A DNA stretch of 64,000 bases, filler included, from Stramenopiles sp. TOSAG23-6 (Eukaryota): assembly GCA_900128565.1 (NCBI GenBank). It is 11 parts of 11 records of this genome, joined end to end, with 100 filler letters (N's around TTAATTAATTAA, not from the genome) between each part and the next. Parts side by side here need not be neighbours in the genome. Positions count along the whole stretch, not along the records: positions 1 to 5,783 come from LT636836.1; 10 more parts are not named here. One strand, 5' to 3'. The translations under genes and the position numbers were made by a program. How positions within the stretch are numbered: position 1 is the first letter of the stretch; each line of letters opens with the position of its first letter. Of the stretch, positions 58-62,065 are shown in pieces. The notes beneath the pieces are model-generated. The model saw only the letters and a list, made by a program, of their open reading frames with translations, had not been told where the DNA came from and ran no database searches.

Positions 58-1739
58 GCTGATTGCTGCGGTAGGTCAAGATAACTTTGGAGACAATTTA
101 AAGAATTCGTGTATTTCCCTAGGCATGCCGGAATTTGGAATTATTTCTTCAAATACTCCAAATTGTTCCACTGCAATATATAATATATGTTTTTTATCAT
201 TCATTTTTTTTGTTTATTTTTACAATGAAAATTTTGTAGCTTTGAGTTTTTTCACTCTAAAAAAAACAACTCCTGACCTTACTAGTTTATACAACAAAAA
301 AATATTTTTTCACAGTACATGCTACACTTGATGACAAAGGAGAGTTAGTGACTGCAATAGCTGATATGTATGTTTTATTTTTTTTTTGTATGAATTTTTT
401 TTTTATAAAAATTTTGTACCTAACAAATTTCAGTTTTTTTTTTTTGAAATATTTTTCCAAAATACATGCAGGTCCTAGAAACGTTGAGCAGTTCAGACAT
501 CAGATCGTTTGAATCTTCCATTAAAGCATCTAGTATATACGTTTTCCATTATTTTCAATTTTATTTTTTTTTGTTTTTACTATGAAAATTTGACTCATAA
601 CAAATTAAAAAATATTTTGAAATATTTTTCAATATACATTGTCGTTTTAGATGGAAATTTATCAAGAAATACGATGCAAGAATTATTCACAATTTGTGTT
701 GAAGACGAATCTGATAAAACAAAATCTGATAAAACAAAATCGGATATTCGAAATATGGGAAATATGGGAAATAAACCTTTGATTTGGTTTGAATCTACAT
801 CTGTACCAAAGGCACACCGTGTGCGTTTTCAAAATGTTTTGTTATGTTTTTGTTTTTTGTTTCGTAGTACATTTTGCATCTAATGATTTTTTTTATTATC
901 CAAAAAAAAAAAAATATTTTTCACAATATTTGCAGTGTCTAATGGGTTATTGTCTTGTCGACAACTTACATACTTATCTCCTAATGTTGAAGAATTGTAT
1001 GTTTTTTTTTTCAATTTTTTGTCTAAATATTTTTTTCGTACGAAATTTTGTACCTAACAAATTTCAGTTTTTTTTTTGAAATATTTTTCCAAAATACATG
1101 TGTATGCTTTTATCATTCATTTCAATTTTGTTTTGTAGTACATATAGTATCTAACAAACAAATCAAATTTCTAAAATACTTTTTCATAATATATGTTCCA
1201 TTGTGGATGCAATTCATAATCGCGATATTGATGCAAAAACAGATTACAAAAATGTCACTGAAGACGACATTATTAATTTAGCAGCTACAGTCATAAAAAA
1301 TATGAAAGTAGGAGAAGGTAAAGCAAAATTCAAACATATTATAGTGACAAGAGGATCAAAAGGAGTTTTTATAGTATCAGCAAAACCAACTATTGTACGT
1401 TTTAACCCTTGATTTTTTTCACCTTAATTTTTAACTTTTTTTGTTTTTCATACGAAATTTCGTACCTAACGATTTTTTTTTAAATATTTTTTCACAATAC
1501 TTGATTCTGTCACGAATGAAGTTTTGAAAGTACATAAAATATCTCCACAAACTATTGCGAAAGATATAGTTAATTGTACGGGTGCAGGTGATACTTTAGC
1601 TGGTGCAACTGTTTATATGCTTGCAAATGGTAATAAATTGTATGAGAGTGTTGAATTTGGTATGAGAGCTGCAAGTTTGAGTATCTTCTCAGAAGAAGCT
1701 GTTTCACCAGATATTTCACAAAAAAGACTTTTAAATTAA
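58..1739 (+). CDS. PfkB-family carbohydrate/pseudouridine kinase domain, 5'-truncated, multi-exon (inferred exons 58-184, 321-367, 468-536, 640-820, 932-996, 1100-1101, 1195-1394, 1503-1739)
   Basis: Spliced translation gives IAAVGQDNFG, YNATLDDKGELVTAIADM, IVVLDGNL, WFESTSVPKA, YLSPNVEEL, IIVTRGSKGV and the PfkB signature VNCTGAGDTLAGA. Confidence 0.85.
368..467 (+). other. Non-canonical GT...AT intron of the repeated family
   Basis: The join GAT AT|G CAG restores ADMQVLE; using the nearby CAG (471) gives an immediate TAG stop; contains TTTTGTACCTAAC. Confidence 0.8.
1395..1502 (+). other. Non-canonical GT...TT intron; upstream exon also ends in TT
   Basis: The join ACT ATT|GAT TCT keeps frame into the PfkB C-terminus; the next two downstream AGs give a stop or the wrong frame. 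Confidence 0.75.
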
Positions 1740-4671: not shown

Positions 4672-5737
4672 ATGACAGTCAAGTGTGAAAGCAAATTGAA
4701 ACCGGAAGCTGAAAATGATGACTTACAGTTGAGGAAAGAGGATATAGAAATGGAAAATACTCGTAATTCTGTTGATGCAAAAAATACAGATGCTTCGTGT
4801 TACATTTGTCACGAGGGTAGCAACGGGGGAAAACTAGATAGAGGCTGTGCATGCCGTGGAAGTTCGGGATTTGTCCACATCTCGTGTATTCTTGAGGCAG
4901 CAAAATATAATGCTAGTATGTGGACGCGTTGCACTATTTGTCACCAGAGGTACACAGGCCATCTCAATCTTAAGCTAGCACAAGAATACTATACAATGGT
5001 CTCCGAACCTAATAACCCTGATAGAGCTAAATACCCATCCATCGTTACTATATACGAAACCGAAGGAGGACCCGAAAGTTGTATTGCGAGTGCTGCAACG
5101 GATGTAGCAGGAGCTCTTTATCAATTAGGTTCCTCCGAGGAGGCTTTACCTTTGTTGGAACAAGCGCACGAATTTTACACAAATTTTCCAAATAAATCTC
5201 ATAAAACAAATATGCTCCAGTGTCTGCAACGTAAAATTCTAGTACTGATGGATTTGAATTTATACGAACGCGCATCTGAAGTTGCAAAAAATATAGATCT
5301 AACTGAACCCATTGATGATTCTGTACTCAGTACAATTGGATGTTTGTATTTGTATGCTGTCCGCTTTAATTTTTAATTTATTATCTTTGCTATGAAAATT
5401 TTGTACCTAACGAATTTAAAAAAAAATATTTTTCACAATACGTGCGACTTGATGAGCTTGAAAAAGCGACAGAGGTCTTTGAAAAATTGTTTGCAAAAAC
5501 TACAGATACTGTACATTTTCATAACAATTTTCAAATTTATTTTTTTTATAGAAAATTCCTCTTTGACGATTTTTTTTTCTCAAAATATTTTTTCACAACA
5601 CCTGAATTTTCCTTAGTTTTGGCTAATAATTTAGCGCAATGTTACTACAGGACAAATAAATTCGGAAAGGCACTCGCTTTATTGGAGAATTCATTCGTAC
5701 AATCTAAAAGATTTCTTGGCGAGTTTCATCACAGTAC
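4672..5737 (+). CDS. RING-CH (RINGv) zinc finger plus TPR protein, 3'-truncated; introns ~5352-5443 and 5511-5603
   Basis: CYIC..GCACRGSSGFVHISC..W..CTIC motif followed by TPR-like helices (LANNLAQCY). Confidence 0.8.
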
Positions 5738-5783
5738 ATGCTACACTTGATGACAAAGGAGAGTTAGTGACTGCAATAGCTGA

Positions 5784-17453: not shown

Positions 17454-17699
17454 GTACGTTTTCAAAATTGAATTTTCACCTTTTTTTTTTTTCATACGAA
17501 AGTTCGTACCTAACGAATTTTTAAACCAAAAAAAAATATTTTTTTNNNNNNNNNNNNNNNNNNNNNNNNNNNNNNNNNNNNNNNNNNNNTTAATTAATTA
17601 ANNNNNNNNNNNNNNNNNNNNNNNNNNNNNNNNNNNNNNNNNNNNTTCGTATGAAAACCAAAAAAAAAAAATTAAATTAGAAATTCATATAAAACATAC

Positions 17700-18186
17700 A
17701 CAATTTTGCAGTTTTATCAAAAGATCCCGTTACTATTTTATCTCCATAAGGATTGTTAAAAGCAATTGCATATACAACATTTTTATGCCCTTCAAGAGTA
17801 AGTAATTCATCGCCTGTTGCTGTATTCCATACTTTACAAGTACGGTCATAACTACCAGTGATAAACTTATCACCACTTTTGTTGAACGCGCAATTTGTTA
17901 GGGGTAAAATGTGAGCTCGAAGAATTTTGTATAAATAAAAATCTTGTTTCTCGTTCGATTCTTGTTTTTCAATCAGTTTATATATCAAGCGACGGAGTTG
18001 AGGCTTTCGAGATTTTGATATTAAAGCTTCTTCAAAAACAATCTGGTTGACAAGAACTTCTACATCTGTCTCGGCATTAAGGTGTAGGAGATCTATTTCT
18101 TTGCTATTTTTACTTCCATCTCGTTTAACATACTCGAGAATAATCCCTGGAGGAAAATAACGCAAGAGGAAACGCTTGAGTTTCAT
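17700..18186 (-). CDS. DAW1: Dynein assembly factor with WD repeats (WDR69/ODA16), first exon
   Basis: [19 protein letters not shown]...[32 protein letters not shown]. Confidence 0.93.
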
Positions 18187-18421
18187 ACTGAATGATTGTA
18201 AAACGACGCAGTGCGCTATTGATGAGAGACTGGGAGGGGGGTTTGTATGCTCTCTTTTTAGCTGTATATATATCCACACACGGCGGCAGCAGCAGCACTG
18301 CAGTAGTTAAATTTCGTATCTTTCTTCTCGACGGTTATTTTTCAAAAATTTGAAATTTCCCCGAAAAAAAAAAACCCTAACCCTAACTAATTTTTTTTAC
18401 ATTTTATTGAATTTATTCATT

Positions 18422-19493
18422 TTATTCCTCCTCGTTCTTTACAGTGAAATCAACACATGCTTCAATGCCCATACTTTGCATAATCATACACGAAATCATT
18501 TTCCCATCTTTTAACTCCTCAAATGCTTTTATAAGTTTTTCTGAGGTTTCATTATATTCACCAGTACTAGTCTTTGACAAACTCACATCCGATTTTTCAA
18601 CCGCAGCATGTATTTTGGAAAAATATTTCAAAAAAAATCTAAAAAAATTCGTTAGGTACAAAATTTCGTACGAAAAAAAAAAATCGATTTTTTTGTAAAA
18701 AAAAAAATAAAAACATACATCGTTCGTAAGATGAAGGGTGCCTGGTTGAGAGTACGAACCGTCCATATCGAGGTCAATTAATCGCCACTCCGTTTTGTTT
18801 AGGTTTGGAGCAGTCATATCATATGACAAAATATTTGAAGAGTCATTTAAAATTCGTTAGGTACAAACTATAGGAATTAGATTTTAAAAACAAAAAAAAA
18901 AAAAGTGAAAAAAAAAAAGTGAATTGTTTTTGTTAGGTACAAAATTTACTACGAAAAAAAAAATGTGACACTTACATGTTATGAGAGGTTGGACTGACAT
19001 CTTGATACTTATGCCCTGTAAAAATATCAATACCAGTGATCTTTGCTTTTGCATGGCCATGCTTTCCGGTCTTGGATACAGTAACTTCAATAACTTTGCA
19101 GGGATGGTCCTTGAGTAGAACGTGGCCGCCCTTCTTAACTTCACCAGCGCGGATAGGGTAAGTCAAGGAAGCTCCATCTTCAGTTTTTTCAATAGTAAGG
19201 TCTTGGACTTGTGCAGCAAGTCTTTCTGAAGCGGTCTCACTACCTGAATTTCCGGTTTGTGCGACCGCGCCATCACCAGCGTCTATGAGTTCCAATTTGC
19301 GATCTGCTGGTTTGAAAGTTTCTTTACGAATTCTTTGTTTGGAATCTTCGTCTTCACCTAAGTCAATACCAGTTAGTTTGACCTTTAAGCCTTTCTTTCC
19401 TTCTTCTTTAAGAATATTTGTAATTTTCAGTTCACGTCGACCAACTTTTACGGTCATTCCTAGCACAACATCATTGTAAGTAATAGAGACCAT
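18422..19493 (-). CDS. eIF5A: Translation factor eIF5A with N-terminal extension (introns 18816-18975 and 18608-18718)
   Basis: Hypusine motif SKTGKHGHAK, ITGIDIFTG, PTSHNM|TAPN and QSMGIEAC. Confidence 0.93.
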
Positions 19494-19806
19494 TTTCTAG
19501 AATATTTTCTACCTAATCGCGCCGGTCCTGGTGTTAGGCGTCGTGTTAGGCTAGCGTAAACCTTTGAAGTCGAGAGGCACAGAAATTTGCCATTCTCGAC
19601 TTTTTGCACTGACTACTAGGGTTAGGGTTGGATTTTTTGACATCCTGTCAATTTTAGTTTATTTAGGTATTTTTACGATAATTCCAATTAGTATCATTAT
19701 TTGTATGAGTTGTTCAGATATTCAGATTGGAACAATGAATTCTTTGTAAGATTAAAATATTTTAGTTTATAATCTGGTAGATATTTCACCAATAGCTTTT
19801 TTAACA

Positions 19807-22041
19807 ATGTCTTCTACAATGATTGGTGTGCAACAAGATTTATCGCAACCTTTGAACGAAAACACTTCGCAAGAATCTTCTGTTTCACAAGGCACACTAT
19901 TCTCTTCTGTGATGAACTTGAGTGCTACAGCAATGGGAGCTGCAATTCTTTCTCTGCCAATTAGTTTTTCATATTGTGGGTGGCTTGGGGGTTCCATTCT
20001 GCTACTGCTTATTGGTTTGATGTCAGATTATTCGCTTATATTGCTAGTAAAGGCTGCACGCTCTTCTAACGAATTCACTATTGAAGGTATTGGTCGCGTA
20101 TATTTTGGTCAAAAAGGGGCTTTATTTGTAAAGTGCACTCTTCTTGCCTTACTATTTGGAGCCATACTCATCCTTCTAATAGTAATGGGTGATTTAACTA
20201 CACCCTCTTTTCAACATTTTGCTCTTGGTGGAAATTTTTTAAAAGATTGTCCAAGTTGTCCAAATGAATCGACATGGTGGTCAGGAACTCAAAATTGTAC
20301 AACGTGTCAGCTTCCTCCATGGTGGTCAGGTCGTGCAACAGTGTCCATTGTTTTGACACTTTTAATGTTCCCGCTACTTATGAGTCGAAATTTATCCGCG
20401 CTGAAATATATGTCTTCATCCCTAAACCCTAATTTTTTTTTCATACGAAAATTTGTACCTAACGATTTTTTCACCAAAAAAAAAAAATTTTAAATTTTGT
20501 ACCTAACGATTTTTTTTTTAAATTTTTTTTCACAATACATATACGTCTTCACTCTCTGTATTTGCAATTATATTTGTATTTTTCTGTATAATGAGTCGAT
20601 TTAAAACAATTTACTCAGTTCAAGAAGTAAAATGTCCGACAGCAGGTGAAATATCTCCGATAGCTACATCTTTTAATATTTCATCATCTGTGATGTTTGC
20701 ACTACCCATTCAATCTCTCGCATGTACGTTTTTTTTATTTTATTTTTTGGTTTCATACGAAAATTTGTACCTAACGATTTTTTCACTAAAAACAAAAAAA
20801 CAAATTTCAAAATTTAATTTTTTTTTTTTTTCTAAATTACATTTTGTACCTAACGATTTTTTTTACNAAAAAAAAAAAAAATTTTTNAAAAAANTTTTTT
20901 GCTGTCAATTTAATATTTTGGATATTGAACGAGAATTAAAACCAAATCTTAGAAAACATATTTTTAAGATTATACACATTTCAATTCTTGGAGCTGCATT
21001 TACTATATATGCTGGATTTGGATTTCTCGGGTATCTGCCACGTGGCCAATGTGAATCACCGAATGGAGATTCGTTGTTTCCGGGAGATATGTACTTTTAC
21101 ATTAGGGTTAGGGTTTTTTTTTTTTTTTTTTTTTTTTTAGTATGAAAACTTTGTACGTAACAAAACAATTTAATTTTTTTTATATTTTTTTTACCAAACA
21201 TTCTTCTTGGATTTCCAGAAAAAGATACATTAATTCTTATTTGTGTAGTTGCTATGGGTTTGTGTAATATTCTAAAATTACCATTGGCTGTCGTTCCATT
21301 TAGAGAAGTATGTTTTATTTTTTTTTTAACAAAAAATCGAAATATTTTTTCGTACGAAATTTTGTACCTAACAAAATTTTTTAGATTTTTTTTCAAATTC
21401 GAAATATTTTTTTTATAAAAATTTTGTACCTAACAATTTTTCAAAATTTTTTTTAAATATTTTTCCAAAATATATGTATGCAATGAGATATTAGGATGGC
21501 AGGCGAGAGATTCTGTCATCGACGTATCATCAGATTATACAGTAGAAAATATGTCAGATTTCGTGCATACCACTACTAATGGTATTTTGCTAGATTCAGA
21601 AATACCTAAAAAAAGCAGAATTTTATCAAATTTTGAATTATTTCTTGAAACTTGTGTTATTTTAACTGTTGCATTGACATTAGCTCTTTTATGCCAAGGC
21701 TTAGATAAAGCGTTACAATATGTTGGATGTACTGCTGGGGTTTTGGTGTGTTTTATGTATGTTTTCATCATGAATTTTTTTTTTTTTTTTTCATGGAAAA
21801 TTTGTAACTAACGATTTGTTTTTTTTTCGTAAAAAAAAAAAACAAAAAAAATATGTTTTCGTAAAACATTATTCCTGGATGTTTCTACGATAAAAGTATT
21901 TGCACACAGTACATAAAAGAAGGAAAACGTCCTAGTTGTAAAGATCGAATATTTCCTATATCTCTTGCTGTTGTTGGTGGTGTCATGGGATTGGTCTCAT
22001 TATCAGCATTATTATTTGAAACTATACAGCAAAAATCATAG
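19807..22041 (+). CDS. SLC38/Aa_trans amino-acid transporter, 6 exons (introns 20408-20540, 20724-~20897, 21091-21201, 21308-21475, 21757-21869)
   Basis: SVMNLSATAMGAAILSLP, LSALKYTSS, AFCCQFN, GDILLGF and FIIPG after splicing. Confidence 0.88.
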
Positions 22042-22357
22042 CTTGGTGTAAAAACTAAGTTTGTCTTTTACAGTGGTTATTGATATTTTTTCTTAGGTAC
22101 AAAATTTCGTACGAAAACAAATATTGATATAGTTATTGATATAGTTATTGATATAATTATTGATATAGCTTGGTGTTGTTTTGATGAATATTTTATTATT
22201 ATCAAAATTTTGTTTTAATATAAAGTCAAAAATTAGTTTTAAAACATATAACAAAAAGAAAAATCAATACAATTTATTCAAAACGAAAAAAAGGTACATT
22301 TAGAAAAAATCAATACATTTTATTCAAAACGAAAAAAAGGTACATTTATAACCCTAA

Positions 22358-23357
22358 TCAGTTCTCTGTATTCACTTTCTGTTTTTCCTTCTCTTTTCTT
22401 AATGCTTCAATGTCTTTTTGTAACTCCTCCAATTCCTCTTTAATAACTTGTTTAATACTAGGATTTTTTCGATCAAATCTCTGTGCAGCTTTAGTGATCA
22501 ATTCTTTTTCTTTAGATTCGACCAACTCCTGTAAAGCTTGATCACGTGCGGCAGCGCCACCACCAAGTTCCGTGGCTCTTTTTTTCAATGCATGTATTAC
22601 GAAAACATATTTCCAAAAAAAACTAGTTAGGCACAAAATTTTCATAGTAAAAAAAACAAATTTCAAAATTCAAAATTCGATTTTTTTTGTACCAAAATTT
22701 GTACCTAAAAATATATAAATGATAAAAACGTACATTTCGACCATCTGTTGTCTTCAACCACTTTTGAGCTCTAGCTGATCCTTCTTGTTGTGCTTCTGAG
22801 AGAACCAACTTTCTCAATTTACGCCTCTCTTGAGAAGCTCGTTTATGTATTTTGAAAAAATATTCTTTTTTTTTTTTTTTTTAAAAAAAATCGTTAGGTA
22901 CAAAATTTAATACAAAAAAAAATTGAAATTCACGAGTAAACGTACACATTGCCCATCCCATGTATCAGTCGTATCTTGGACAAATTGAGCAACTCCACTT
23001 TCTAAATTATCCGTTTCGGAATTGATAAATGAAATATATTCTCCTTCCTTTGCAATGCGGTGTATGTTTTTTGGAAAAATATTTCAAAACAAATCTAAAA
23101 AAATTGTTAGGTACAAAATTTCGTACGAAAAAAAAAATTGAATTTGAAAAAAAATAAAACATACGTTTTCTTTAACTGAATTTTCAGACGTAAATTATGT
23201 ATTGTGAAACAATATTTCAAAAACGAAATCAAAACTTCGTTAGGTACAAAATTTTTATAAAAAACAAAATTAAAATAAAAATAAAATAAAAATAAAATGA
23301 AAAACGTACACAACCTTTTTTCAATTCCTGTAAAATTTTAAATATCTCAGCTGGCGC
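22358..23357 (-). CDS. Hypothetical coiled-coil protein, 3' exons (5'-truncated; several family introns)
   Basis: Short open exons between repeated intron motifs, ending ...KQKVNTEN*. Confidence 0.55.
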
Positions 23358-23581
23358 ATGTATTTTGGAAAAATATTTCAAAAAAAATCTAAAAAAAATC
23401 GTTAGGTACAAAATTTCGTACGNNNNNNNNNNNNNNNNNNNNNNNNNNNNNNNNNNNNNNNNNNNNTTAATTAATTAANNNNNNNNNNNNNNNNNNNNNN
23501 NNNNNNNNNNNNNNNNNNNNNNGGTACAAAATTTCGTACGAAAAAAAAATAAATTCAAAATTGAAAAAAAATAAAACATAC

Positions 23582-24600
23582 ATGGTGGGAACGAATATGA
23601 ATTTGCTTTGATACGCTTGTATGTTGTCTTGACATTTCTAGTTTGGAAAGGTGGTTTACCTATTAGCATTGTGTATAAAATACAGCCTAAAGACCAAATA
23701 TCTACTTCATAACTATGTCCACGACCACCACCAAGAATCTCCGGGGCAATATATATTGTGAAAAATAGTTTTTTTTTGATTGTTTTTGTTAGGTACAAAA
23801 TTTCGTATAAAAAAAATATAGACAAAAAATTGAAAAAAAATAAAACATATATAGTTTGGTGTACCACAGATTGTTTGTTTGCGCTCCTGTTCATATGACA
23901 ACTTTGTTGCGAGTCCGAAGTCCCCTACCTTGATTTTTAGTTTCTTACCTTCCGTCTTACTTTCGTCCAGAAATAGATTACCTAACTTCAAGTCACGATG
24001 AATTATTCTTTCTTTGTGGAGGTACATGACGGCATCTATGATTTGTAAACCATAGTATTTCACTTCTGGCTCGGTGAGACACTTTCTGCGTTTTACGAGT
24101 TCCATAAGCGTATGACAACGACATACTTCAAGTAGAATATATACGTTGTGGCGATCCTCAAATGTTCTCTCGAACTTGACAATATGTTGGTGATTAATCG
24201 AACGGTGAATTGTAATTTCCCCAATTAGTTTTTGCTTCGCTCTTGAACGTTTCAAAGATGCTTTACAAACAACTTTTCCTGCTAATTGACGCTTCGATTC
24301 TGACGTGAACAAATAACATTTAGCAAATCCTCCTTTACCTAATAATTCACCACGTATATACTTCCTGAAAAACCTATGACCCCGTGCATCTTCGCGTTCT
24401 TCAGTTACAACACGAGGACACTCAGGCTGGGGTGGCCTATTTTGCTGACTTGATGCAGGTCTGTTGGATGAAGCTCTACCATTTCCTGATGATGGCTTTG
24501 ATTTTGCAACTTTTCCACAATTGTAATTCTGAGGTACAGGCCGCTCGTGTCTATCTTGTTTAGATGGGTCAGAGGTACGTTTCACGCGACCTGATGACAT
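23582..24600 (-). CDS. PLK: Polo-like Ser/Thr kinase, N-terminal kinase domain (intron 23751-23850; 3'-truncated)
   Basis: [50 protein letters not shown] and LIGKPPF. Confidence 0.92.
23751..23850 (-). other. AT...AT intron containing no AG dinucleotide
   Basis: Exactly 100 nt must be removed to restore the invariant GTPNYIAPE. Confidence 0.9.
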
Positions 24601-32895: not shown

Positions 32896-34142
32896 ATGAT
32901 TAGACATGTTTTCATAATATATAGTATTTTATGTATTATAGTATTTTATTATATCTCATCTGTTGTCGACGCAGCTGCAGTGACGCAACTACCCGTGGAA
33001 GAGGAAAAGGTTCCCACTCCTGATAGTACCGTCACTCCTGCTAAGTCTAGTGTTACACCTGACCCCACTCCTAATGAGTCTGGTGATGAGTTTAGTGATG
33101 AGTTACTATCTAGTCAATTAGAACTAAAACTGTCTCTTCTATCAAGAGATAGAGTAAAACTTGAACAAATGATAGAGTCATCAGAGCAACAAATCAACAA
33201 AGGAGATATGTTTCATCCCAAAAGTGTCCATTCTAAATATTACACCAAACAACGAGAAAAACAAAACAAATTAGAAATTCAAATCATTGAAAAAGAATAT
33301 AAATATACTGAAGACTCATGGTTGTATCTCTTGAATAAAATGACAAATATTGGAAATACAGCTCTACAAAAAGTCAGAGATTCAAATTTTAACATGTATG
33401 TTTCTTTTTTTTTTTTTTAGGGTTAGGGTTTTGAAATTGAATTTTTTTTTTTTTTTTTTTCGTACGAATTTTCATACCTAACAATGTTGTTTTGCGATTT
33501 TGTGTTTTTTCACAGTATATGAGAAATAGAAATATTGAGCAGCGTAGAAAACTTGAGTTTACAATACGAAATCAAATTGAAGCTGATGCCGAAGAAGCGT
33601 ATCAAAACTTGCTACAAGAGGAAGAAGTCCGAAGTTTGAATGTGACTGACAATGATAAAGAATATCAACGAAAGATGAAGATGTTAAATATATTGTTAAA
33701 GACGCATTTGCTTCATGAAAATAAACATTACACATTTACAAATCATTTTGCTAGAGAGTTATCAATGGAACGAAAAGTCTATAAAAAACTAGCAAAATTT
33801 GGTAGAGAAGATGATGCTGTGCGATTTAATCAAGCAACAGTTCGAACTCTAATATTATTACTGTATCAAAGAGCTCAAAATGTAATACAAATGTATGTTT
33901 TATTTTTTTTTTAAACAAAAAAATCGTTTTTTTTTTCGTACGAAATTTTGTACCTAACAAATTTTTTAGAATTTTTTTGAAATATTTTTCCAAAATATAT
34001 AATTCTACAAACAAGAGAAAAGTTTAATTCATTATATACAAATGCTTTACGTAAATATGTGCAACAAAGTAGATCAGAAGTGTATGTGTTTAGTATGAAT
34101 TTCAAATTGATTGTTTTTTTCATACGAATTTTTATACCTAAT

Positions 34143-34237: not shown

Positions 34238-35080
34238 TAAAAACAATTAAACACATTTAATACTATTTTACTATGAAAATTTCAATTTTTTTCACAATAT
34301 AGAGTACAAGATCAACAAGATGATTTTTTTTCTCTTGGTCCATCTTTTGCTTTTCTTGAAATGACGTCATTCTCAAATAAATATTTTGAAAAAACATCAG
34401 AAAATATAGAAAATATTTTAGATAAAAATTTACTTCATGTAAAGTTCAAAACTCGATTTGAAGATATTTTAAATGGTACAATTGATAAAATTCAAGAAAA
34501 ATTTTGCCCAAATTATAGTAAACAAATGCAAGAAATAAAAACAATACCAGATGTACAAGATGATTTTATAGCCAATATAGAAAAATATATTAAAAAAAAT
34601 TCAAAAAATTTGTTAGGTACAAAATTTCGTATGAAAAAAAATTTAAAAAACTTTACAGCAAATTCTACTAATGAATCGGATAGTCAATATTTAATTCGTT
34701 TTTTACTTTGTCCAATAGAACATGAAATTATAGTGAAAAAAATGTTTGGTTTATTAGAAGATATGCCAACACGAATGATTGTACATTTTTTTTTACTAAA
34801 AATATATTTTTTTTTTTGTATGAAATTTCGTACCTAACAAAAATTTTATGAAAAAAAAAAAATATTTTTTCACAATGTATACATCGAAACAAATGAATGA
34901 TTTTATTGAAAATATTATAATTAATGTTGTAACACAATTGATGATATTGGAAGGTTTGATGTTTAAAACAATCAAACAATTAGAAAATGAAGATTTTACT
35001 ATTGAGACGCAATTAAGTGTAACACGAAAACCCTACATGGAGGAAAAGCAATTTTTAACAGTTCTGCGTGAAGCTATAAT
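32896..35080 (+). CDS. Hypothetical signal-peptide coiled-coil protein, multi-exon, 3'-truncated
   Basis: MIRHVFIIYSILCIIVFYYISSVVDA; frames join across family introns starting at 33396, 33893, 34082 and ~34781. Confidence 0.6.
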
Positions 35081-41180: not shown

Positions 41181-43068
41181 GCTAATTGCGAGCTCACATT
41201 TATGGATATTGGTAATATTCATGTAATGCGAAATTCTCTTTCTGAGTTTTGTAAAGTTTTACAAGCCGAAAGAGTAGAAGAAAAAGAAAAAGTGAGATCG
41301 AATAGAATCCATATGAGAAAAATGTATGTTTTATTTTATTTTTTTTTCGATTTTGAATTTTTTTTTCGTACGAAATTTTGTACCTAACAATTTTTTTTAG
41401 ATTTTTTTTTTGAAATATTTTTACAAAATACATTCAAATAGAACAATGGAGAAAATTAAATTTTGATAAATTGAATGATACGTTGAAAAAATCAGGCTTT
41501 GGTGATTGGGAACTTGTCAGAGACTCTGATATGTTACGTAGTTCATTAGGTATAGAATATAGTACGAAAAAAAATAGAAAACCTGAAAAAAATAGTAAGG
41601 AAAATAATAATTCTAAGTCTAATTCGAAAGATGAAAATACAAAATCAAAATTGAAGGATTTTTCGTGTCCTAATGAGAACAAACATCCTAATTTTAATGT
41701 AAAAGATGAAAATAGAAAAAATATTTCAAAGTTGACAAGGAACCCTAGCCCTAATTTCTACTATTATAGTAATAATGTGACTCCGTCGTCTAGTTCGTTG
41801 TGTGAGGCTGATGTATGTTTTATTTCTTTTTCAAATTCTATTTTTTTTTCATACGAAATTTTGTACCTAACGTTTTTTTTTTCAAATATTTTTCCAAAAT
41901 ACATTATCAGAGATCTCAACGCTGTCGTTTAGGTATTTCTCGTAGTGGTTGGCTTGTACATATTTGTAAAGTTTTGGAGGCTGCATCGTTTACTGCAAGA
42001 AAAATGGATTTATCTCAGCAGTCTGTTTTAATTCATTGTAGCGATGGTTGGGACAGAACTGCTCAAATTTGTGCTCTTACCCAACTTCTCCTAGATCCAT
42101 ATTACAGAACATTTCAAGGGTTTCAAGTATTAATAGCTAAAGAATGGCTCTCATTTGGTCATAAATTCAAGGATCGGTGTGGTATGGGAGATACGTTTTC
42201 ATCATGATTTTTGTTTTTATAGTTAATTTTGTACCTAACGAATGTTTTTACTAACAAAAAAAAAAAAAAAATATTTTTCACAATATATATCCCAGTAAAT
42301 CTGGAGAAGTGTCTCCCGTTTTTATCCAATTTTGTGATTGTGTATTCCAATTACAAACACAATTCCCATCAGCATTTGAATTCAACTCGAAACTATTAAT
42401 AGCACTTGCAGATTTCGCCCACTCATGTACATTTTCATCATTTCAATTTTTTATCTACAATGTTTTTTCGTACGAAATTTTGTACTTAACAAAAAAAAAA
42501 AAAAAAAAAATATTTTTCACAAAATATCTTGGTTTGGTAATTTTTTAGGAAATTGTGAAAGAGAGAGATTTTTAGAATTACGTGTCCGAGAACAAACTTT
42601 TAGTGTTTGGGATTATTTTGATGTCAATCGTAAGCAATTTATTAATTTAGGATATATCAAGGAGCTTAAGGGTCTTTTAGTGTTACTTCCAGCAACGACA
42701 CCGATGTTCGTTTTCATCATGAATTTCAAATTTATGTTTTTTTTTTCGTAGGAAATTTTGTACCTAACGATTTTTAAAAATATTTTTTCACAATACAGGA
42801 GCATTCGAATCTGGTCAGAGTATTATTGTCGTGATGTCACTCATCGCAGTGGTGTAGATATGTTATATAGAGATAGTAGAGATCACGAGCTTATATATGA
42901 TCATTCAGCACATGTACGTTTTCAAAATTGAATTTTTTACCTACATTTTTTTGCGTAGTAAATTTTGTACCTAATGAATTTTTAATCAAAAAAAAAAAAG
43001 AAAAATATTTTTTCACAATACATATATTACACGATAGAAATGCGTCTGCTATTCGATATAAATCATGA
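41181..43068 (+). CDS. MTMR: Myotubularin-family phosphoinositide 3-phosphatase, 5'-truncated (introns 41324-41433, 41813-41904, 42191-42288, 42427-42527, 42706-42798, 42914-43023)
   Basis: IGNIHVMRNS, active site HCSDGWDRTAQ, KEWLSFGHKF, SPVFIQF, FPSAFEFN and FGNFLGNCERER. Confidence 0.93.
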
Positions 43069-48879: not shown

Positions 48880-49225
48880 ACTTTATAACTGAGGTTGAGT
48901 ATAGATTTTTATATGAGCACTCAGTTTTCAAATCGTACTGCAACTCTGTAATAGATTCAGCAGTTCGAGTTCGACAAGTTCCTCAACTGGCGAGGAACTC
49001 AAAAGTAGCAACACTGGCTCTAAATGACGCTGATTTCATACAAAAATCCGTACCTAAAAAATTGGTCAGCTGACATGACGTTTTCATGAAATCGGCCGTG
49101 CGCATCTCAAAGTCACTTCTACCCATTCAATTTATCAACAGGAAGCTTCCTAAAATTGTACCGTCTTCAAATTTAGCTCTTACTCTACAGGAAACAACAC
49201 AAGTGCTCAACATAATTTTAAAACA

Positions 49226-60410: not shown

Positions 60411-60913
60411 GCAGAGGAGGACTAGGACAATTCTTGATTATACCATATTTAGACTACAAATTATATATACTTATAATTTATTTATTCCTATACATGCATA
60501 CATATTTATTTTTTCTTCTTCCTCCTCCTCTTTTGTACTACGGCGGTACTCCCACTAAAAAATATATACAACTCCTCCTCCGCGGTACAGTTATTATCCG
60601 CATGCGCTCATTCGCATCATAACTATTTTACCGTATTAGTGGTAGATTACGCATGTATTTTTCTTCCGAAAATATTCTCATACACGCACTTCATAATAGC
60701 ACAACATTCATGTTAGGAAGAGCACAGCCTTTTCCAGAAGGTTGAGCCCCCGAGAAGAAAAGTTGTTTGAATCTTGCACAGTGCGATCCACCAAGCGATG
60801 GGGTCTTTGATAGCATACGTGGAGTTCTGGTGTAGCGGGTAGTGTTTTGTCTTTCGTTTTGGCAGCTATCACGTAGTAAATTTGTTTAACAGCTTCGTCC
60901 TTCACGTGCTGGT

Positions 60914-62065
60914 ATGAAAGATTGCAGCGGGTTGCCTGTCCTTTCCAAACTGTACATGATGGGTTTGCGCACACATCGACGTATATCTCGGAGACAGGCA
61001 CTTAGGTTAGGCCCAGGAGTTCAGGGACAGATATTGAAAACCGTTGCGGTCGGAAACGTTGTCGCTGGAGGCACTGGAAAAACCCCTTTGGTAGAACTTT
61101 TAGCCCGTGAGTGCTCAAAGCGAGGGAACACCCCAATGATTTTATCACGTGGCTATGGGCAAGATGAAAGGTACCAGTACGCACTCAATTGCCCGGAAAA
61201 CACCATCGTTGGGATCGGCTCAAACCGTGTCCGGGCGGCGGAACAAGCGTCCCAAAAAGTGGAGGACAGCGGGATAGACTTAAAGAAAACATTTGCCATA
61301 TTGGACGACGCGTTCCAGACTTGGCACGTGGAGCGGGACGAAGATATCGTTTGTGTAAACTGCATCAACCCATGGTCAAATGGGAAGTTGATACCACAAG
61401 GAAAACTTCGTGAACCATTGAATGCGCTTACTCGGGCGACTCGGATCGTTCTGTACAATACAAACATGGTATCATCGGTTGAGGAGATGAAAATTAAGGA
61501 AGAGATTGAAAGTGTTTTTGAGGCAGGCGAACGCATTCCAAAGTTTTGCAAAGCAAATATGGTGCCATCTTATTTTCTGGCCGTCGAAGATGGAGATGAA
61601 AGAATGAAGTCAGTGACATTACAGGAGCCGGATAAAATCGAGATGGGGGCCCTTGTGTTTAGGAAATCAAGCATTGAAGCATCGGACCATTTGGTGTACG
61701 AAAGAAACATACTCCCTGTATCTGGGATTGAGAACCCCCAAGCTTTTCATCGCTCGTTAGTCGACTTGGGAGGATTGCTACCTTCAGAATTCTGGGATGT
61801 ACCTCCCCAATTTTCTTTTCCGGACCACCACTATTTTACAAGCAAAGACATGGGGGAAATAAAGCAGGTTGCCCTCAAGGGAAATAGCCGGGTTGTAATG
61901 ACGCAAAAAGACGCTTGCCGAGTGCTGTTTGGGGATCGCTCTTTTGCCTTGGAATTTTTTCGTGCCCTAGACCCTTGTATACTTGTATCTGAAATGCAAT
62001 TGGAGGATTATGGGGAAACCGAAGGAGCACAATTATGGTTGGATGATTTGTTTCGGAGTTGCTAG
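60914..62065 (+). CDS. lpxK: Tetraacyldisaccharide 4'-kinase (lipid A pathway)
   Basis: VGNVVAGGTGKTP, ILSRGYG, ILDDAFQ, PQGKLREP, SGIENP, FPDHH and MTQKDA. Confidence 0.92.
   Translation: MKDCSGLPVLSKLYMMGLRTHRRISRRQALRLGPGVQGQILKTVAVGNVVAGGTGKTPLVELLARECSKRGNTPMILSRGYGQDERYQYALNCPENTIVGIGSNRVRAAEQASQKVEDSGIDLKKTFAILDDAFQTWHVERDEDIVCVNCINPWSNGKLIPQGKLREPLNALTRATRIVLYNTNMVSSVEEMKIKEEIESVFEAGERIPKFCKANMVPSYFLAVEDGDERMKSVTLQEPDKIEMGALVFRKSSIEASDHLVYERNILPVSGIENPQAFHRSLVDLGGLLPSEFWDVPPQFSFPDHHYFTSKDMGEIKQVALKGNSRVVMTQKDACRVLFGDRSFALEFFRALDPCILVSEMQLEDYGETEGAQLWLDDLFRSC

Follow-up and report, generated by a model that had tools for sequence, protein, structure and literature searches.

A repeated GT-AT intron family with a palindrome and CTAAC box in a stramenopile genome, and its probable reading by a changed U1 snRNA

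The locus and its intron family

The window analysed here, 64,000 nucleotides with filler included, is a string of short contigs from the compact, AT-rich assembly of Stramenopiles sp. TOSAG23-6 (21.1 Mb, 6,236 contigs). In searches bearing on the lineage, no named hit exceeded 48% identity, and the sole support for a stramenopile affiliation was an Ectocarpus hit at 32%. Near its start, on the + strand, a gene for a PfkB-family kinase is interrupted by introns of one family, at 368..467 (GT-AT), 821..931 (GT-TT), 997..1099 (103 nt, GT-AT) and 1102..1194 (GT-AT); a further member at 1395..1502 (+, GT-TT) is preceded by TT, a 2-nt duplication. The 103-nt intron holds the motif under study, CGTACGAAATTTTGTACCTAAC, at 1037-1058. 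Its donor TT/GTATGTTTT (995..1005; the slash marks the splice boundary) belongs to the family consensus AT/GTAYGTTTT, which is complementary to the 5' end of the genome's U1 (L001:349-359). There follow a 16-nt imperfect palindrome, GTACGAAATTTTGTAC, at 1038..1053, with mean conservation of 91% in the right arm and 74% in the left, against 87-96% in the neighbouring T-run; CTAAC at 1054..1058, a likely branch site with its candidate branch A at 1057; and the 3' box GAAATATTTTTCCAAAATAC with a terminal AT (1078..1099), the predicted cut lying after the box and not at the first AG.

Removal of 997-1099 together with the neighbouring introns gives an open frame, SPNVEELCSIVDAI...GAGDTLAG...stop, and the Pfam PfkB profile is matched within its last exon (E 6e-11). 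The GT at 1100..1101 is a 2-nt micro-exon between two family introns; it is needed for the PfkB frame, and skipping it closes the frame. In the intron that follows it the palindrome has decayed (GTAGTACATATAGTATCTAAC). A 53-nt stretch of the gene, 311-363, recurs identically at 5731-5783, at a contig end behind another gene, and this repeat is probably an assembly artefact; whole contigs are duplicated in the assembly, for example C13/C14. On the - strand at 1806-1923, a tRNA gene (1852-1923) is adjoined by a partial copy of its own 3' end.

Family introns recur in unrelated genes along the window. The eIF5A gene (- strand) carries a GT-AT member as intron 2 (18608..18718), and its intron 1 (18816..18975) combines a canonical GTAAGT donor with two core copies; an end at the AT at 18816 gives SPTSHN-MTAP, its neighbours at +/-3 being open too, and intron 1 probably ends in AT. 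Removal of an AT-AT intron from a protein kinase gene (23751..23850, -) restores GTPNY/IAPE, and five members lie in a run in a myotubularin gene (41813..43023, +; GT-AT, AT-AT, GT-AT, GT-AG and GT-AT). A minus-strand intron at 22733-22592 has a second core inside it in the opposite orientation (22689-22708, +).

The motif is far above chance in window and assembly alike. With up to two mismatches, GTACGAAATTTYGTAC has 82 matches in the window, on both strands and with many sites counted twice, against 0.12 expected; with up to one mismatch, TACGAAATTTYGTACCTAAC has 7,865 in the assembly, a count inflated by duplicated contigs, against 0 for the control. One metagenome contig held a single copy, and a search of viral contigs gave no match. 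Statistics cover 856 kb (about 4% of the assembly), namely the window and 80 stretches from the longest contigs, in which 184 introns were chosen by their two ends only, ignoring the motif, with end profiles trained on 145 elements; the reversed control gives 1, and the set includes a few visible mis-calls. The claim that most introns carry the 16-mer is not confirmed by this sampling, since the exact word is present in only 53/184 introns (11 of the 38 in the window). The constant part of the introns is the right arm with CTAAC, not the palindrome: GTACCTAAC, which joins right arm and branch-like box, is found in 135/184, and exact CTAAC in 156/184 where 6 would be expected. CTAAC does stand directly after the palindrome as described, its last A lying 33-48 nt from the intron 3' end (5th-95th percentile; full range 31-65 nt, with peaks at 34 and 43), and the box that follows it, AAATATTT, is also as claimed.

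A member of the family is thus some 100 nt long, of the form AT/GTAYGTTTT...GTACCTAAC...AAATATTT...AATACAT/, in the consensus order of exon AT, GTAYGTTTT, a T-rich stretch, TTTTCRTACGAAATTTYGTACCTAAC, a spacer, AAATATTTTTYCAMAATAY and two more bases. The ends are GT-AT in 131/184; 171 begin with G and 13 with A, and the last two bases are AT in 143, with at least nine other final dinucleotides seen. In 124/184 copies the last two bases of the intron equal the last two of the preceding exon, against 94+/-3.5 in shuffles, and there is no excess match at -3 or -4. A 2-nt target duplication thus surrounds an element with GTA...TAC ends, the terminal inverted repeats matching over 3 nt in 105/184 and over 4 nt in 59/184. 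The flanks lean to C/AT/G (-3 is C in 37% and A in 22%; the base just past the end is G in 48%). Many look-alike introns in unrelated genes, together with a target-site duplication, are what is expected of introners. The copies are old and diverged: median pairwise identity is 73% after collapsing runs (184 copies, 856 kb; the similarity is limited to the intron), and nearest neighbours reach a median of 87%.

A search for an autonomous partner in one transposase superfamily, PF13359, gave five hits with ends unlike those of the family. Harbinger-type transposases are thus present, but as mobilizers they were rejected on their differing ends (GGCCGG after TTA). One such element (L108:3-2920), on four near-identical contigs, encodes a transposase and a convergent 350-aa frame; it has TTA then GGCCGG at one end and a solo core between its genes. 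L108 encodes a Myb-like protein. A 435-nt intergenic stretch at L040:1935-2372 has imperfect inverted ends (ATAC(C)GGCCAC, a T-run and the core motif), with a core located some 15 nt inward in each of them; no second copy of it was found in the assembly.

Splicing register and the major spliceosome

Intron removal leaves an open frame in 89 of 110 testable copies (the other 74 have other introns, runs, N or edges in their flanks). Among the same 110, only 6-7 are open when the cut is shifted by 1-2 nt, 9 when unspliced and 4 on the opposite strand; shifts of 3 nt are equally open (89-90/110), and frames cannot separate them. A terminal AG, which is a feature of U2-type introns, is found in just 9/184, and cuts at the first AG break frames: of 90 copies without a terminal AG, 74 have an open frame when cut after the box and 30 when cut at the first AG, with 45 open by the box only and 1 by AG only. 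A stop-codon test of the register is nearly empty in its fair version (2 vs 0 of 48); another version, whose filter introduced a bias, gave 0 vs 2 of 57. Profile scores of the myotubularin junctions against 120 homologs do not settle the register, and at one junction the residue commoner among the homologs, C, and a higher profile score are obtained by cutting 2 nt further right.

RNA contigs from four metatranscriptome runs, compared with 17650-20860 of the window, match parts of exons as well as numerous short fragments of repeats, and none bridges an intron, eIF5A intron 2 included; across ten runs, at most 0.12 of the words of 17650-23420 are present. The RNA result neither shows nor denies splicing. 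Splicing, the register and the branch A of the family introns are therefore inferred from the DNA.

The only U1 snRNA found (E 8e-12; 54.1 bits, below the Rfam cut-off of 69.5) begins AAACGUACAUGG, where the Rfam consensus is AUACUUACCUGG. It departs from the consensus by U2A, U5G and C9A, and the changed bases face intron +7 (T in 183/184), +4 (C or T in 180/184) and exon -1 (T in 161/184); at +4 the changed G pairs with both C and T. Complementarity of the donors to U1, which the original prediction proposed checking, is nearly full, with a mean of 10.0 pairs of 11 for the genome's own U1 and 7.2 for the consensus U1; the few introns with GTAAGT or GTAGGT donors fit the genome's U1 less well. 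The corresponding check on U2 also came out positive, in that CTAAC is complementary to the canonical GUAGUA branch box of the genome's U2. The full TACTAAC is present in only 1/184, and CTAAC is likely to be the branch site. U6 ACAGAGA and the U5 loop are canonical as well. Because its donors match the changed U1, the family appears, from gene sequences, to consist of major-spliceosome introns with a co-adapted U1. The same match would fix the register at GT and explain the GTAYG donor, so that a U12-like reading is not needed.

The U5, U2, U1 and U4 genes are clustered within 640 nt, on a contig that is present in duplicate; U6 lies elsewhere. In the cluster at L001:9-645 the spacers are only 2, 23 and 5 nt, which suggests a single precursor transcript, and the U5 and U4 ends share a near-identical CTCTCACGAG stem; a literature search on so packed a U5-U2-U1-U4 cluster gave nothing clearly matching. 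The canonical U1 word has 24 hits in the assembly against 21 in the control, which is the chance level. Since only four of eight spliceosomal control families were found in the assembly, a second, canonical U1 could be missing from it. Slu7, Isy1, PRP38 and BUD31 were found. SF1, Prp18, LUC7 and the SF3b1 domain were not found in the assembly, and there was no U2AF1/ZRSR2 among 16 CCCH hits, its motif giving one chance hit; with only 4/8 control families found, no loss is claimed and such absences weigh little. A U2AF65-like protein encoded at L063:664-2628 (-) combines a pair of RRM1-like domains with a UHM at the C terminus; its full-length relatives are mostly unnamed, one being from Ectocarpus.

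U12 introns have an RTATCCT donor, a CCTTAAC branch box and a branch-to-end distance of 10-20 nt. The idea that the family signals are intermediate between U2 and U12 is contradicted by the complete lack of either U12 word (0/184 for each) and by the fit of the donor to the genome's own U1. It is thus very improbable that these are U12-type or hybrid introns cut as AT-AC or GT-AT by U11/U12, even though 13 copies begin with A, the ends vary and CCTAAC resembles the U12 branch box. An AT-AC register would require AT before GT, which is found in only 118/184 and is absent from the intron at 997..1099, and the distance from branch to end is longer than in U12 introns. U11, U12, U6atac and PDCD7 were not found, which is weak evidence in an assembly where only half of the control families were found. 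Variable terminal bases and short inverted ends might also recall the structure-guided, non-spliceosomal removal proposed for euglenid nonconventional introns. For the present family such a route is scarcely credible: end-to-end pairing has a probability above 0.5 in only 25/156, and signals compatible with U1, U2 and U6 are all there.

The palindrome in RNA and in DNA

A stem that stops exactly where CTAAC starts invites the idea of an RNA hairpin stacked on the U2 branch helix and presenting the branch A. The T/C variants at one site do keep a G-U or G-C pair, as had been noted, in 96/113 copies, although this is the sole position that varies so, and isolated 16-mers can fold at -1.2 to -5.4 kcal/mol. 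However, 52/156 isolated 16-mers have no fold, all six pairs are possible in just 57/156, and in whole introns the stem probability exceeds 0.5 in 56/156, with a median of 0.08. Covariation, judged by direct pair counts, was not found. The loop is intact in 113 of 156 copies, and their 678 pair cells comprise 497 with the consensus pair, 41 changed on one side, 1 changed on both and 139 broken; in the 38 window copies 79.8% of the cells are paired, the same as in shuffles, with no two-sided change in 228 cells. The compensatory pairs that the hairpin predicts are thus lacking from both sets of copies, an outcome that the original prediction had listed among its refuting conditions, and the left arm decays. 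The intron at 997..1099 itself folds no better than its shuffles (z -0.99), its centroid being without the stem, and the neighbouring intron at 1102-1194 must still be removed with its palindrome decayed. A selected RNA hairpin is not supported, and a hairpin presenting the branch A is improbable.

The other suggestion made for the palindrome, a protein or transposase site, stays a live reading at the level of DNA in view of the solo copies and of the 435-nt stretch; the PF13359 search gave no transposase with the ends of the family. When the 20-mer that ends at CCTAA is used as a profile (reversed controls 0-1), it has 263 hits, of which 184 are in full elements, 47 have one end and 32 have neither. 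The base after CCTAA, which is outside the profile, is C in 170/184 intron copies but in only 17/32 solo copies (p 3e-7). The C is kept in introns and often lost in solos, and therefore belongs to the intron role, as pairing with U2 predicts; the 20-mer can stand alone. Decayed introns make up some of the solo copies; others are intergenic or in antisense orientation within exons. One outside any intron, at 49038..49057 (+), has no C after CCTAA and is flanked by two divergent genes whose starts are each some 160-170 nt away; another is antisense inside the ORF of a + strand gene (34613..34632, -) and is read as LLGTKFR. The surrounding stretch, 34560-34680, is a decayed antisense copy of the element read through as coding in the + strand frame.

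These copies could mean that the 20-mer is the site of a host DNA-binding factor, a promoter or chromatin organiser, captured by the element and kept in introns for a role in DNA. The solos end at CCTAA with their flanks lost, several are antisense in exons, and in 228 upstream regions there are six distinct sites, at 136-247 nt before a first ATG, against none in 230 coding regions (p 0.015). The solo class has few members, includes decayed introns and was sorted by eye once the data had been seen. On the other side, a strict solo pattern gives only 10 hits genome-wide, several of them inside introns or exons, and the left arm decays in introns. A repeat this abundant would produce a similar picture if stray pieces of it were captured, and such fragments are a fair rival to any DNA-site reading of the solos. 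We regard capture of a host site as unlikely. The evidence favours a DNA-level site inherited with the element.

Known systems and a model for the family

In the introners of Micromonas pusilla and other aquatic eukaryotes, one splice site comes from the element and the other from the target duplication (PMC11282704, PMC12130899). The present family shares with them the many look-alike introns derived from a short non-autonomous DNA element. In Micromonas-type introners, as described there, the duplication supplies AG, whereas here it is 2 nt long and mostly AT, with at least nine other dinucleotides; the host U1 is also altered here. Amoebophrya introner elements likewise give non-canonical introns that recur in many copies and are bordered by direct repeats, but they are reported to have terminal inverted repeats of 8-20 nt and apparently no U1 (PMC7789003). 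The genome studied here does have a U1, and its elements have inverted ends of only 3-4 nt and an internal palindrome. An AT target duplication is shared with the ISL2EU group of PHIS DNA transposons, whose target is A/AT/T (PMC4482050). Membership of that group was rejected on the flanks, with C commoner than A at -3 and G commonest after the end; the duplication here is not always AT, and the PF13359 search gave no matching transposase.

The 3' ends have their closest likeness in Fritillaria borealis and F. pellucida, where transposon-derived, non-canonical U2-type introns are removed by the major spliceosome, and end mostly in AT or AC, AT being commonest (34% and 44%), with a YAY triplet at the intron end that echoes the upstream exon (PMC13326754). 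Origin from a transposon, removal by the major spliceosome and AT as the commonest 3' end would be common to both. However, Fritillaria donors are described as mostly AG, with the U1 5' end strictly preserved, whereas donors here are GT and U1 is changed. Duplication of U2AF is shown in Fritillaria (PMC13326754); here U2AF1 was not found, a weak result in this assembly. Co-evolved U1 snRNAs that pair with atypical donors are described in Entamoeba (AACAAAC) and Mastigamoeba (ACGUAC), with no such change reported for yeasts, Giardia, Trichomonas, Thecamonas or Micromonas (10.1101/2022.06.08.495308). The U1 here has the ACGUAC core of Mastigamoeba and, as in Entamoeba, an extra A for +7. It differs from both in that a third change pairs with the U at exon -1, the donor is the end of a repeat family and the acceptor is mostly non-AG. 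By analogy, the family may be seen as an introner with Fritillaria-like non-AG ends and an archamoeba-like change of U1.

The preferred model, to which we give a probability of about 70%, is that the motif forms the central part of an introner which the major spliceosome removes, with the donor read by the changed U1, the acceptor set by the box and the palindrome not acting as an RNA hairpin. The introner would be a non-autonomous DNA element of about 100 nt with short GTA...TAC ends, inserted with a 2-nt duplication (AT preferred) in the sense direction in thousands of genes. Its donor AT/GTAYGTTTT would pair with the U1 5' end, with U2A, U5G and C9A matching U at +7, C/U at +4 and U at exon -1, and CTAAC would pair with GUAGUA of U2, possibly in a helix extended over the right-arm GTAC with one C bulged. 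The conserved AAATATTT...AATAY box may set the acceptor. The last two bases, mostly AT, would represent the duplication's second copy, and for this reason AG would not be needed. The symmetry of the palindrome may be a DNA-level feature inherited from the element, the right arm doubling as branch region; within this model the palindrome is probably, though far from securely, a protein-binding DNA site of the subterminal type. A bolder version, that one transposon family rewrote the splicing code by re-tuning U1 at three positions, establishing a box-set acceptor with no AG check and making the 20-mer both a DNA site and a branch region, is possible but doubtful. If it is true, the 20-mer would be used as a protein-binding DNA site upstream of genes too.

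A genome that combined a burst of introners with acceptors that are mostly AT and a U1 changed at three positions would directly test who adapts, the spliceosome or the transposon, and how the cell selects a 3' splice site when AG is not required; the interest does not lie in the palindrome by itself as an RNA hairpin. Genome-scale sets of non-AG introns have been described mainly in Fritillaria, and U1 snRNAs with altered ends mainly in archamoebae. A literature search, confined to main texts and covering few subscription papers, gave no report of the GT-AT introns or the U1 of this organism. Gene finders that assume GT-AG will mis-annotate such genomes, and a U1 that falls under the Rfam cut-off is easily overlooked.

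Genes and introns of other kinds accompany the family. Besides eIF5A intron 1, a small number of introns begin with GTAAGT or GTAGGT and have these donors beside telomere-like CCCTAA repeats. Telomere-box-like AACCCTAA words number 105 in the 856 kb, against 43 for the reversed word, and sit in intergenic DNA and some introns, as at 21103-21113 and 33419-33430. An ATP synthase beta gene at L039:5519-5800 has an apparent long 5' intron that starts with GTAAGT and has no family core. At 60890-62065 (+) the window carries an intronless gene for LpxK (lipid A kinase), on a contig that is more GC-rich and free of family introns.
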